32,000 nt of DNA. Source: Candidatus Nitrospira inopinata (GTDB lineage Bacteria; Nitrospirota; Nitrospiria; Nitrospirales; Nitrospiraceae). Under the pieces are notes generated by a model. The model saw nothing but the letters and a program-made list of their open reading frames with translations. It did not search any database and was not told the origin of the DNA. The position numbers and the translations under genes were made by a program. The stretch spans positions 720,001 to 752,000 of the forward strand of contig NZ_LN885086.1 in the NCBI RefSeq assembly GCF_001458695.1. The letters run 5' to 3'. Positions 8,173-15,554 of the stretch are shown piece after piece; positions within the stretch are counted from its first letter, which is position 1; each line of letters starts with the position of its first letter.

Positions 8173-9995
8173 TCAATACGCTTGACTAGCTTTTCAAGAG
8201 GTCCAGTGACCTGTTGAAGCCCATCGCGTACCATATCGCTACTGGCCTTTAACTCTTGCGCCGCCTGAGAAAATGATTCATCAAATCGCGTGAGTTGTTG
8301 TTCTGTATACTCTTGAACCACCGACGAATACCGTTCCATGCTATGGGTGAGTTCCGTAAGCACGTTGCCGAGTCCTGTCTCAACAGTATGGAACACAGTT
8401 TGGAACTGTTTGAGGGTTTCTGTCTGAACAGCGTGGATCTCTGCGAAGCGGGTCAGCTGTTGGGCTAACCGCTCGGCGTTCTGGCCTGCTTGCTCCTGAA
8501 GCTGCCGCATTTCCTGCACAGTAGCTGCGAACGAACGTTGGCCCTCCAGGAGCGTATAAGCTGCCTGTTCGACTTGTTTGAGAGCCTGTTGGCCTTCAGT
8601 TACCATGGCGCGGAACGACTCCAAAGCTTCGTTGAGGACAGATTTAGTCTGCGCAAGCTGTTGGCTGGCTGATCGATGCTCATCAAGTGCAGCCATGAGG
8701 TTCATGGCACCCTGCTCGGTCCATTTAGCCGTTCGCTGAAGTACGATATCGACAGTCTTGGAGAGATGGGCTTGTGAGTGTTCCTGTGCCTCGCGGATTG
8801 TCGTTGTTACAGATGCCAAGAGTTCATGGGCTCGACGTTCATGTTCAGATCCCACATTCTCCAGTCGAGCAAGCACGGACCCCACGGTTTCTCGCAATTG
8901 TCCTATCTGGTCACTCACGGCTCGATTTTGGGCCGCCATGGAATCGTCCAAACGTTGGATGAACGTGGCTAAGCCAACTCGGCTTTCTTCGCCTGCTCGG
9001 TTAAGCTCCTCCATCCGATTACTAGCAGAAGCGAGGACCGTTTGCAGTTCGGTAAACTGTGTCTTGGTCGTCCCTTCAAGACCTTTCAGAAATTGAGCGA
9101 TAAGCTCCTTAATGGCATCGTTATTGTCTTGGCGCTGTTGGGTGGCCAAGCGCTCCACAACCTCCACCATGCGGCGAAGAGTTGGGCCGAGGCTTTCAGA
9201 AATCCCTTCTTTCAGGCGGGTTGAAAGATCAACCCCAAAATGACGAAACGCCGTGGTCTGCTCTGCGAGATTTTGATGCATGTCTTCGAGAATGTGTTCG
9301 CTCGTCCTGCGACTGAGTAGCCTGTTAAGGGCATGGGTGAATCGATAGTAACTATTACTTAGGCCATGGACCAGCGGTTTCTCAAGTAAGAGGTAAACGG
9401 TCGCACAAGATAACGCTACGATGGAGGTGAGGAACTTTCCTGCTAATCCGTTGATAAGGCCAGAAATTCCCTCAATGCGAGAGGATTCTTCATCGATGTT
9501 GACTTGCAATAGTCCTGCGAAAATAGCTAAAAAAGTTAATAATAAGCCGACACCTGTCACGATTCCAGGAAAGCTGGAGTAGAAGAACAAATTGATACGT
9601 TGATTGATCAGATTGTCTTCAGTAAAAAACTCCTCTGCTGGACGGGTATTATAAATCTTGCCCGGTGAGTCTTTAACAAGTACTGTCTCTCGAAACTCTT
9701 CCCATGCCTGGGCGAGCGGCTCAACTTTACCGAAAAGACCGTCGAGACGGTTAAGCCCTTCTGCATCCAGCACAGAATGCTGATGCCGGAGCTTTTGGAG
9801 TTCTGTGGCGACCACTGTAAGAGGTTGCCTGACCATCCACACTTTCACTACCATCCACGTAAGCACAGCGAGCGTGACCACAATGATGCCCGCTGAGCCG
9901 ACCCAACTGAGGCCAGGAGCAGTTACAAGCCCTATGGGATTAGCATCAGTGAAGGGATGAAGAAGTAAATCAACCATTGTGCTCATGGCTGGCAT
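8169..9995 (-). CDS. zorA: MotA/ExbB-like ion-channel membrane protein with a long C-terminal helical tail (ZorA-like)
   Basis: 608 aa. Three hydrophobic segments lie at about aa 29-55, 135-163 and 178-205. The MotA/ExbB-type core reads FPGIVTGVGLLLTFLAIFAGLL...GLAGKFLTSIVALSCATVYLLLE. About 400 aa of Q/E/L/A/R-rich, proline-poor sequence follows, suggesting a coiled coil or long helix. In-frame ATGs occur at 9995, 9986 and 9977. The one at 9986 forms an ATGA overlap with the upstream ORF stop and has GGAG 10 nt upstream. Confidence 0.8.
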   Translation of the reverse strand: MPAMSTMVDLLLHPFTDANPIGLVTAPGLSWVGSAGIIVVTLAVLTWMVVKVWMVRQPLTVVATELQKLRHQHSVLDAEGLNRLDGLFGKVEPLAQAWEEFRETVLVKDSPGKIYNTRPAEEFFTEDNLINQRINLFFYSSFPGIVTGVGLLLTFLAIFAGLLQVNIDEESSRIEGISGLINGLAGKFLTSIVALSCATVYLLLEKPLVHGLSNSYYRFTHALNRLLSRRTSEHILEDMHQNLAEQTTAFRHFGVDLSTRLKEGISESLGPTLRRMVEVVERLATQQRQDNNDAIKELIAQFLKGLEGTTKTQFTELQTVLASASNRMEELNRAGEESRVGLATFIQRLDDSMAAQNRAVSDQIGQLRETVGSVLARLENVGSEHERRAHELLASVTTTIREAQEHSQAHLSKTVDIVLQRTAKWTEQGAMNLMAALDEHRSASQQLAQTKSVLNEALESFRAMVTEGQQALKQVEQAAYTLLEGQRSFAATVQEMRQLQEQAGQNAERLAQQLTRFAEIHAVQTETLKQFQTVFHTVETGLGNVLTELTHSMERYSSVVQEYTEQQLTRFDESFSQAAQELKASSDMVRDGLQQVTGPLEKLVKRIE

Positions 9996-10879
9996 GCTCC
10001 AGTGGTGATCGGTCTCCGAGTCGAGAGGAATGCCTGAGTTACAAGATGACTTTTCATGCGCCCTAACGTCATTGTTTTGCCTTTAATTTTGACTGCGGCC
10101 GTTTGAAACTCGAATAGCCGCTTGCCAAAGTCTCGTGGTATTCGAAATTCGGAAAGCCCCTCCCGTGCCTCTTGCGAAAGATGGTACGCCATCTTGATAT
10201 AGATATGGTGCGGAGGCACGAGTTCTTCCCGAGCCCAGCTCTCTTCGATAATACGGACGAGTTCTTCGGAAATATCCACACACCACCGATCCGTCCACCG
10301 ATCTTCAAACCACCGGGCCAACTTCTGGCACGCATCGTGATCCAGGACATCCACGTTCAACTCGCCCTGCTCGGACAAGCCTGCAAGCGTCAGATTGCTG
10401 CTGCCTAAATAGCCAACGATTGGGTTGATAGGATCAGGCCGGAAGAGCAAGTACAGCTTGGCGTGCAGCGAATGCCGGAGGAACAGTTTGACGATAACCT
10501 TCTTGGATTTGATTTGTTCTGCCAGCTTGCGGAGCCCCGCTTCGTCTTCGTTGGTTGGAATGCCGACGCTCAATTGCTCGCGGAACTCTTCGGCGAGCTT
10601 CTTTTTGAGGTGAATTGTCGTCTGGTTGTCTATCTCACCATCTCGGCTTATCAGGCTCAACGCTTTGCGCAATTCATCGTGCGGCAACCGCTGCATACCG
10701 ACCAATAGGCGGCAACAGTGCCCATCTCCTCCAGACCACTTCTCAATATGCGAGTCGAGTTGCTTCCATCCTCGAAGGTTGAAATACCCGACGCAAAAGT
10801 CAGCGCGGTCGGCAACCTGCATGGTTTCGCGGAGCGCGGGAAGGAGGGATTGTTCGATGTTATCAAAGATGCGGGGCAT
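9983..10879 (-). CDS. PLD-family (single HKD motif) nuclease-domain protein, probably the N-terminal remnant of a PLD-helicase fusion
   Basis: 298 aa. The HKD motif is LHAKLYLLFRPDPINPIVGYLGSSNLTLAGL (nt about 10394-10465). The N-terminus MPRIFDNIEQSLLPAL...ADFCVGYFNLRGW and the segment RLFEFQTAAVKI resemble, from memory, the first 260 aa or so of roughly 1000 aa PLD + SF2 helicase proteins. After about aa 265 the sequence becomes unrelated (KGKTMTLGRMKSH...) and stops at 9983, before any Walker A motif. It could be a pseudogene fragment or a functional short PLD nuclease. Confidence 0.6.
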   Translation of the reverse strand: MPRIFDNIEQSLLPALRETMQVADRADFCVGYFNLRGWKQLDSHIEKWSGGDGHCCRLLVGMQRLPHDELRKALSLISRDGEIDNQTTIHLKKKLAEEFREQLSVGIPTNEDEAGLRKLAEQIKSKKVIVKLFLRHSLHAKLYLLFRPDPINPIVGYLGSSNLTLAGLSEQGELNVDVLDHDACQKLARWFEDRWTDRWCVDISEELVRIIEESWAREELVPPHHIYIKMAYHLSQEAREGLSEFRIPRDFGKRLFEFQTAAVKIKGKTMTLGRMKSHLVTQAFLSTRRPITTGACQP

Positions 10880-11486
10880 AGCTGTACTGGCGTGCTTATT
10901 CGTGTGAAGCGCCGATGCAGAATGCCATTTTCTACGATATAAATCAATAATTTAGATGATCATTGGGGGCGATCTCGGTAGGATTAGGATATTGAGGTGG
11001 CAGTGCAGGTGACGGCGGTGATGCACCGGACGTTATGAATGCAAAGAGGGAAATAAGAAATCGAGGGGTCTTTTCTTGACAGAGAATGGACGTGGTTTCG
11101 GTCACAGATGCTTATGCCCCGTCGTCCGCGCCTCACTGCCGGAGATTTTGCCCGTCCTATGCTCAATCGCTGTATGGGTGCTTGCCGTTATTTGGACGAA
11201 GACAAGGGATCGGAATCAGTATTGGGCGCGTAAACGTTCCAGCACAGAGCGGAATGACTGCCAACCTCTTTAGTTCTCCGCAGATCGTCGTGGGACGATA
11301 TGCGAGCGCTTCCCAAAAGTGTCAGCGAAACAGCAGACCATCAACCTTTTAAGAGCACAGCAAGGAAAGGAGCCGGACGATTCGAACCGATGCCAAGGTG
11401 AAGCTGAGGTGCGGGAAATCCGCCTCCACACACACTTACTTCATTGACTTGTGATCTTTGGGGGAATGTTTCCAACTTGTTGTTTT

Positions 11487-11562
<76 letters not shown>

Positions 11563-11617: not shown

Positions 11618-11694
11618 TGGTGCGCCTGACAGGATTTGAACCTGTGGCCCTCAGCTCCGGAGGCTGATGCTCTATCCAGCTGAGCTACAGGCGC
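11618..11694 (-). tRNA. tRNA-Arg (anticodon CCG), CCA encoded
   Basis: The reverse complement reads GCGCCTGTAGCTCAGCTGGATAGAGCATCAGCCTCCGGAGCTGAGGGCCACAGGTTCAAATCCTGTCAGGCGCACCA. It has an acceptor stem GCGCCTG/CAGGCGC, an anticodon stem TCAGC/GCTGA with loop CTCCGGA, and a T-arm ACAGG-TTCAAAT-CCTGT. Confidence 0.93.
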
Positions 11695-14744: not shown

Positions 14745-15554
14745 CTAGTAGCCTGCTTTGGCGTTGGGGTTGACCTGGCTGGGGAACGGATCCAGGATGC
14801 TCTTGGGCGCCCCGTTCCAAATCACATCCGCCAAGTTCGACATGCGGCTCACAATCTGCGCCGCCACGCCGCCGGCCGCCCCGAACAACCCGCACCAGCC
14901 CAACGTCACAAAGCCCCAATGCAACGGCGCCGCAAACAACTCGTCCACAAACCAAAACGCATGGCCCCACTCATTGAGCCCCACGTTCGGCAAAATGAAC
15001 ATCGGCCCCACCACCGCCGCCACCAACGGAAACGACGTCGCCTGGCTATACAACGGCAACCGCGTCTGCGCATACAGATAACTCGAGACCCCGCACGTAA
15101 TGTACAACGGGAACGTCCCGTAAAACGCCACAATGTGACTGGCCGTAAAACTCGTGTCCCGAATGATCACCTGATGCCACGCCGCATCCTGCTCCAACGT
15201 GTAGCTGCCCGCATAATAGACCCCCCACACGTAGCAGGCCAACCACCCCATCCAGTAAAAATACCGCTTCAACTCCGTCTTCGGATCCAAATTCGCCAAA
15301 TTCCGATCCCGCGTCACCCAAATCCACCCCACCGAAATCGCAAAAAATAACGCATTGGCCACAATGTTAAACCGCCATAACCCCATCCACACCGCGTCAA
15401 ACTCCGGCGTCATCGAGTCCAACCCGTGCGAATACCCAAACGTCCGCTGATACAACACCCAAAAAATCCCAATCGCCAACATCGCAAACCACCCAATCTT
15501 CCACGGCCGCGAATCATACCACTGCGAAATGTCATACCCCCGCTCTGCCGCCAT
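14745..15554 (-). CDS. amoC: ammonia/particulate-methane monooxygenase subunit C family protein (AmoC/PmoC)
   Basis: 269 aa polytopic membrane protein. It contains long stretches I recognise from AmoC: [64 protein letters not shown] and [30 protein letters not shown]. An AAGGAGGG SD lies 8 nt upstream of the ATG at 15554. No amoA or amoB is present in the window. Confidence 0.9.

Follow-up and report, generated by a model that had tools for sequence, protein, structure and literature searches.

Among described systems, the closest to the locus reported here are type I Zorya (zorABCD), the single-HKD nucleases and the Type-2 BREX-related systems. Single-HKD nucleases such as Nuc and BfiI need two monomers to make one active site, and no phospholipase D (PLD) component has been reported for any Zorya type in the Zorya literature. 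Type-2 BREX-related systems have an HKD-Swi2/Snf2 protein and an N6-adenine methyltransferase as their core and are defined by a DUF499 ATPase and DUF3780 (PMC12839542). We analysed 32,000 nucleotides of the genome of Candidatus Nitrospira inopinata (contig NZ_LN885086.1, forward-strand positions 720,001 to 752,000; hereafter the window), in which a type I Zorya operon is preceded by a 298-aa open reading frame (ORF) with one HKD motif, here called PLD′. We found that this ORF is a 5′ stump comprising the front quarter of a large HKD-nuclease/SNF2-helicase restriction-like gene, and comparison with related loci strongly supports the view that zorABCD replaced the interior of a two-gene restriction–modification-like operon, leaving a stump on each side. 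An earlier note, made from the letters of the sequence, had offered two readings of the ORF, either the remnant of a PLD-helicase defence gene with which a Zorya cassette had recombined or a retained extra nuclease. The stump and its junction with zorA comprise the following features.

9983 to 10879, minus strand: PLD′ ORF, 298 aa from an ATG start (ORF list; Pfam PLDc_2 and RE_NgoFVII).
10085 to 10879, minus strand: codons 1–265 of PLD′, the part homologous to the full-length family (tblastn match of the full-length protein P0123 ending at 10085, and alignment).
10388 to 10465, minus strand: catalytic HKD signature from HAKLYLL (H139, K141) to GSSNLT (N162), from the translation.
9986 to 10084, minus strand: post-breakpoint tail of 33 codons, with all three codon positions differing evenly.
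9983 to 9986, minus strand: ATGA overlap of the PLD′ stop (TGA, 9985–9983) with the zorA start (ATG, 9986–9984).
Junction-carrying sequence: GGCAAGCGGCTATTCGAGTTTCAAACGGC

Codons 1–265 comprise the HKD nuclease domain, a helical linker and the initial residues of the helicase Q motif. The ORF list, the translation and the Pfam matches (PLDc_2 and RE_NgoFVII, the latter the NgoFVII N-terminal PLD domain) bear out the earlier observation of a 298-aa ORF with a single intact HKD motif. PLD′ has the catalytic H, K and N expected of an active single-HKD nuclease, and H139, K141, G159, S160, S161 and N162 are invariant columns in a 48-sequence alignment. An AlphaFold 2 model of PLD′ was of low confidence (mean predicted local distance difference test score, pLDDT, 52) and unsuited to comparing folds, there was no sequence-level match to solved PLD structures, and a PDB sequence profile search matched the SNF2 part only.

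An exhaustive HMMER search of cluster representatives returned dozens of relatives of 1,085–1,170 aa that match PLD′ over residues 1–267 only, among them P0123 (1,135 aa, 71% identity) and P0131 (1,166 aa; P and L numbers denote proteins and loci, respectively). Identity between PLD′ and full-length members over residues 1–265 is 71–83%, and homology ceases at residue 265–268, near nt 10085, where the consensus of the full-length relatives continues ...FEFQTAAVKIAAHHLNKRGGVLIGDVVGLGKT (SNF2 motif I) and the window diverges after AAVKI into ...AAVKIKGKTMTLGR..., 33 unrelated residues. Alignment and tblastn both confirmed this breakpoint and divergence, which the earlier note had placed at the same position when it took the ORF for an N-terminal module cut before an SF2 helicase domain; the full-length relatives are large PLD-helicase proteins aligning to residues 1–265 only, as it had anticipated. 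The full-length proteins consist of an N-terminal HKD domain, an SNF2-type ATPase core, Helicase_C and a long C-terminal region, and on PADLOC they score best against the candidate ‘HKD+Snf2’ C3a139. PLD′ has the N-terminal single-HKD PLD domain of this architecture; the corresponding SNF2 ATPase core (motif I GLGKT through Helicase_C) and C-terminal region are absent from the window. The suggestion that the lost 3′ part might survive nearby failed, as tblastn with 48 full-length proteins found no piece of it in the window, positions 1882–2566 included.

The alternative that PLD′ belongs to a bona fide short PLD protein family and was never truncated draws on several homologues of ~285–298 aa with related C-termini (L009, L010 and P0001). 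All of these, however, fall in one Zorya-linked lineage with a single common junction, and are not widespread as a genuine short protein would be by the reasoning of the earlier note. The C-terminal tail evolves neutrally, since its changes are equal across the three codon positions, the homologous part ends within the helicase Q motif, and most unbiased relatives are ~1,130 aa long, such that a short family is effectively refuted. In a first word-indexed protein search with the 298-aa query, no subject exceeded 520 aa, although relatives of ~1,130 aa score comparably; this ceiling most likely reflects a length filter of the tool (~1.75 times the query length), and length distributions from that search are not to be read as biology. 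An excess of truncated relatives, or hotspot of truncation or insertion, was likewise considered and rejected on the exhaustive search and a DNA-based locus sample, in both of which relatives are mostly ~1,130 aa; the 80 metagenome loci of the DNA-based sample are dominated by complete genes of 1,122–1,150 aa.

Shortened members of the family do occur elsewhere. In the DNA-based sample, the ORF of 58 loci ends at a stop codon inside the contig, and about 10 of these stop far short of full length or are frameshifted; other HKD-SNF2 stumps of 290–429 aa with separate breakpoints (L005, protein P0078; L006, P0109; L007 and L008, P0018) lie mid-contig in islands of unrelated genomes rich in toxin–antitoxin, insertion sequence and restriction genes.

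What the complete gene is normally joined to was read from the same 80 loci. A gene for a ~1,090-aa protein comes after the HKD-SNF2 gene in 50 of them, in most cases on the same strand with a gap of 0–16 nt or an overlap. This protein scores above 1,000 bits on PADLOC REase_MTase_IIG (PDLC03628) and matches Pfam Eco57I and MmeI_Mtase, and a ~200-aa PsyrA/DprA-like gene follows next in 17 loci. By this gene order and domain content, the parent is a two- or three-gene restriction–modification-like system. The last ~40 codons of the methyltransferase (VLAKxYGFTxEELDFI...) persist 3′ of zorD in L010 (8497–8544) and L098 (8216–8320), and the same remnant is present in L001 (12026–12154), 3′ of a 116-nt zorD remnant. 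Because the PLD′ 5′ stump and the methyltransferase 3′ stump lie on either side of it, Zorya is flanked by both ends of the displaced operon; the 3′ stumps thus support and extend the first reading of the earlier note, in which a Zorya cassette had recombined with a PLD-helicase defence gene. The window has no adjacent Eco57I-type methyltransferase gene, and neither the window nor L009 retains a detectable methyltransferase stump. Between zorD and the next convincing gene (window 1862–2566), ~700 nt hold overlapping, implausible ORFs only; within this interval L009 aligns to 2018–2224 only, and no methyltransferase remnant was detected there.

A ZorA search of GTDB genomes gave four Nitrospira/Nitrospirales loci from metagenome-assembled genomes (L009–L012), all four with a PLD stump immediately upstream of zorA, and ZorA homologues on metagenome contigs gave further loci, such as L093–L098. 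Breakpoint and tail are homologous among the window, L009, L010, L096, L012 and L001. Seven other Nitrospira Zorya loci descend from the junction seen in the window; three of the seven kept the HKD-containing ORF and four have a dead stump. The states of the junction are as follows.

Window and L009: stump of 298 aa, ATGA overlap with zorA.
L010: stump of 285 aa, stop 48 nt 5′ of zorA.
L012: stump of 242 aa, in-frame loss of approximately residues 219–255, HKD retained.
L096: stump with a 1-nt frameshift.
L097: 557-nt deletion (window 10557–10001) removing the HKD region; 115-aa mini-ORF ending at the ATGA.
L098: the same 557-nt deletion and a frameshift near codon 32.
L011: the same 557-nt deletion and an in-frame stop at codon 61.
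L093 and L094: ZorA 77–81% identical; no stump and no methyltransferase remnant.
L001–L004: stump kept; zorA through most of zorD replaced by mazE/pemK.

Zorya does not need the stump, because the stump is dead in L011 and L096–L098 and absent from L093 and L094. PLD′ is not an obligatory fifth Zorya component, and with this pattern of decay and absence it is not a conserved component of type I Zorya. In the comparison of related Zorya loci that the earlier note had called for, L009, L010 and L012 keep an ORF with the HKD motif, and in the other six the stump is dead or absent. With the exchange in L001 (10001–12160), found also in L002–L004, the cargo at this site was replaced for a second time.

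The Zorya genes of the window are arranged as follows.

8169 to 9986, minus strand: zorA, 605 aa from the conserved ATG at 9986 (PADLOC ZorA1).
7435 to 8172, minus strand: zorB (PADLOC ZorB1, Pfam OmpA).
6027 to 7409, minus strand: zorC, 460 aa from an internal ATG (Pfam EH_Signature, PADLOC ZorC1).
2567 to 6022, minus strand: zorD, SNF2 helicase and Mrr nuclease (PADLOC ZorD1, 723 bits; Pfam SNF2-rel_dom, Helicase_C and Mrr_cat).

ZorA and ZorB are encoded together (ZorA1 1.5e-33; ZorB1 1.4e-32, with Pfam OmpA), with ZorC (EH_Signature 2.2e-32) and ZorD (ZorD1 1.2e-217) downstream. The operon is canonical type I, with all four genes in canonical order, so that the non-canonical context claimed earlier survives only weakly, in the extra HKD ORF in front. 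Both overlaps described in the earlier note, the ATGA at 9986 and the 13-nt overlap with PLD′ from an alternative zorA ATG at 9995, were confirmed in the sequence. The real zorA start is 9986, since the ATG at 9995 is not conserved, reading GTA in L009 and GTG in L010. The ATGA is kept in L009, L096, L097 and L098 and lacking in L010, L012 and L001, and translational coupling is for this reason not a conserved requirement. The listed zorC ORF of 523 aa (6027–7598, minus strand) overlaps zorB by 164 nt; the true zorC start is most likely the ATG at 7409, because the orthologues in L093–L098 are 460 aa long.

Taken as a whole, we consider it likely that the interior of a restriction–modification-like operon was replaced by Zorya and that the stump is now a promoter-proximal leader. 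The parent would have consisted of a ~1,130-aa HKD-nuclease/SNF2-helicase gene and a gene for a ~1,090-aa Eco57I-type N6-adenine methyltransferase. A zorABCD cassette with a mere ~35 nt of its own upstream sequence would have entered an ancestral Nitrospira, replacing everything from codon 266 of the nuclease-helicase to ~40 codons before the methyltransferase stop, and the composite of promoter, PLD′ stump, zorABCD and methyltransferase stump would then have spread and recombined among Nitrospira, with crossovers in the stump. The window’s stump most likely acts as a promoter-proximal leader for Zorya: transcripts would begin at the old restriction-gene promoter (~10919–10947) and run through PLD′ without a terminator, and ribosomes ending PLD′ at the TGA at 9985–9983 would resume at the zorA ATG that overlaps it. 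Synthesis of the 298-aa single-HKD protein probably continues in the window’s genome. The promoter element on which this account draws is the following.

10919 to 10947, minus strand: candidate sigma-70-like promoter TTGATT-N17-CATTCT (hexamers at 10947–10942 and 10924–10919), 39 nt 5′ of the PLD′ ATG, from sequence alignment.

A homologous element (TTGTCA-N17-TATnCT, 8–9 nt 5′ of the ATG) is found in L001, L098, L016 and L014, with variants in L009, L097, L011 and L012. All stump-bearing loci with available upstream sequence have it, dead copies included, and even the dead copies keep the opening ~320 nt of the stump. The final ~35 nt of the tail, including a GGAG ribosome-binding site, are homologous to the region upstream of zorA in stump-less L093; the cassette arrived essentially without a promoter, given this match. 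For the other ~60 nt of the tail, no match was found in the parent genes or their proteins. Between stump and zorA there is no convincing terminator, the one weak minus-strand site lying inside the zorA start. It is plausible that the old restriction-gene promoter now drives zorABCD, and in the window’s lineage the ATGA may couple zorA translation to the leader ORF. The claim of the earlier note that stump and zor operon form one transcription and translation unit holds for the stop/start overlap and the lack of a convincing terminator; promoter use and coupling we infer.

The persistence of the upstream region also bears on whether the stump is a purely neutral, stranded pseudogene, with Zorya transcribed from its own signals in or after it. 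Repeated independent decay in relatives and the existence of stump-less Zorya loci fit such a pseudogene, but the retention of the first ~320 nt and of the promoter-like element in dead copies does not, nor does the mere ~35 nt of native upstream sequence that Zorya brought. The ORF has, moreover, stayed open with intact catalytic residues and a nonsynonymous deficit over synonymous divergence of 0.16–0.5, and we regard a neutral pseudogene as very unlikely.

Several observations weigh against a stump that serves as leader in a captured operon. The window’s own candidate TTGATT/CATTCT is weak, below the threshold of a generic promoter scan; the stump ORF of L010, L012 and L001 stops ~45–65 nt earlier, without the ATGA; the methyltransferase stump is undetectable in the window itself; and purifying selection after the truncation exceeds what a mere leader would need, pointing to a function at the protein level.

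Selection on the stump was assessed with the ratio of nonsynonymous to synonymous divergence (dN/dS), which is 0.06–0.10 over the whole ORF. The value of 0.06 against L001 was rejected as a clean estimate, since the stumps do not form one clade over their 5′ half. Over codons 1–150, L010 lies at a distance of 0.16 from the untruncated gene of L016 vs. 0.25–0.26 from the other stumps, while over codons 200–262 the stumps are 0.04–0.06 apart and at least 0.22 from every full-length gene. This mosaic points to crossovers between resident full-length alleles and the stump, at positions inside it, such that much of the 5′ divergence would have accumulated in intact genes. A truncated neighbour can thus look selected partly through recombination with intact alleles, a caution for dN/dS in defence islands generally.

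We restricted the selection analysis to the monophyletic post-truncation part, codons 196–265. Pairwise dN/dS there is 0.11–0.24, like that of zorA and zorB (0.15–0.24) and similar to that of full-length genes over the same codons. The window, L009 and L010 carry 8 nonsynonymous and 12 synonymous lineage-specific changes (p = 6e-4 vs. the neutral expectation of 76% nonsynonymous, ~3:1), and the Zorya-less L001 copy had 5 nonsynonymous changes, 1 synonymous change and a codon deletion, a contrast with the intact copies that is not significant (Fisher p = 0.16). The surviving HKD-containing copies behave like a constrained gene, with small counts. A functional DNA or RNA element in codons 200–262, where nucleotides are unusually conserved, was rejected: these codons gave no Rfam match, no stable fold (z = −0.66) and no promoter call, they are deleted in L011, L012, L097 and L098, and their synonymous divergence of 0.16–0.25 equals the zor gene baseline. 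Their conservation is explained by the older recombined 5′ sequence, the neutral tail and amino-acid constraint.

Constraint at the protein level is what a retained, functional stand-alone HKD nuclease would show, acting as a homodimer either alone or as a Zorya accessory, perhaps with the SNF2 helicase ZorD as a substitute for its lost motor. A stand-alone stump could in principle be active, because single-HKD nucleases share one active site between two monomers, and H139, K141 and N162 are intact in the window, L009, L010, L012 and L001. Besides the dN/dS in codons 196–265 and the excess of synonymous changes, two of the three HKD-deleted loci gained further lesions and four of the five HKD-containing copies are open, and it is the L001 copy, without Zorya, that has accumulated mainly nonsynonymous changes. 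Set against this, four of the eight Zorya loci linked to a stump carry a dead copy and two close Zorya relatives have none, few substitutions were counted and the L001 contrast is not significant, recombination with functional full-length alleles partly lowers the whole-ORF dN/dS, no known Zorya type has a PLD component, and the structure model is of low confidence. We judge a stand-alone nuclease to be unlikely, though well short of negligible. For the extra nuclease of the earlier note, and for the functional link to Zorya that it entertained, purifying selection and the intact catalytic residues of the window speak in favour, and decay or absence in six loci speaks against. That the stump was co-opted in the window’s lineage as a stand-alone HKD nuclease, produced together with Zorya through translational coupling and contributing to defence, perhaps with ZorD, which would make this locus a five-gene variant at its origin, seems quite improbable.

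Stump and Zorya lie in a low-GC island, directly downstream of two tRNA genes that border it.

11487 to 11562, minus strand: tRNA-Lys(CTT), called by ARAGORN.
11618 to 11694, minus strand: tRNA-Arg(CCG), called by ARAGORN.

GC content is 0.48–0.55 within the island (2501–11500) vs. 0.58–0.62 on the 1–2500 side. No integrase gene was found, and a search of the far side of the island for att-type direct repeats matching the 3′ end of tRNA-Lys gave none. Elsewhere in the window, a 269-aa ORF (14745–15554, minus strand) resembles ammonia/methane monooxygenase subunit C (AmoC/PmoC), as judged by eye, and together with the Nitrospira relatives it suggests a complete-ammonia-oxidising Nitrospira as the source. 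The Zorya module itself (2567–9986) is a patchwork when compared with L009 and L010, with nucleotide distances for the same pair swinging between 0.03 and 0.38 in 150-nt windows (the opening 150 nt of zorA and zorD at ~4735–4885 are examples), which indicates frequent recombination among Zorya alleles. Neighbouring genes differ among the related loci: in L097 a DarT/Macro (DarTG-like) pair lies directly 3′ of zorD (8178–9779), and Zorya in L093 has a DUF3427 gene and a very large ABC-toxin-like gene on its 5′ side.

Compared with known systems, the locus resembles type I Zorya in having ZorA1, ZorB1 with OmpA, ZorC with EH_Signature and ZorD with SNF2 and Mrr in canonical order, and differs from it in the extra 298-aa HKD ORF fused to the operon front; close Zorya relatives function, or at least persist, without that ORF. 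With Type-2 BREX-related systems the parent shares a single-HKD endonuclease–Swi2/Snf2 fusion followed by a large N6-adenine methyltransferase (PMC12839542), of which the window keeps the HKD domain and linker only. ORF clustering of the 80 parent-family loci gave no conserved DUF499 or DUF3780 neighbour, and in the sampled loci L079, L053 and L019 the flanking ORFs had unrelated Pfam domains, again with no DUF499 or DUF3780. As for DISARM, full-length P0123 reached 128 bits on NCBIfam DrmD, where the cut-off is 610, neither DrmA nor DrmB was seen, and matches to DrmD, DrmMI and NCBIfam phospholipD_antiphage are all far under the cut-offs. Like Nuc, the BfiI N-terminal domain and NgoFVII, the stump has one HxK...GSxN motif per chain, together with its Pfam RE_NgoFVII match.

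The stump is a remnant of a known protein architecture, and the case is a well-documented but ordinary replacement of one defence system by another, a well-known phenomenon; understanding of Zorya is unchanged unless the stump proves active. It shares with cargo turnover in defence islands the swap of systems between conserved flanks, the low-GC island, the adjacent tRNA genes and, in L001, the replacement of Zorya by mazEF. It differs in that the flanks here are the two ends of the displaced operon, whose promoter the incoming Zorya seems to have captured, and the composite appears to have moved between genomes through recombination in the stump. The locus and its relatives thus provide a clean, base-level record of one anti-phage system displacing another, with both stumps surviving.

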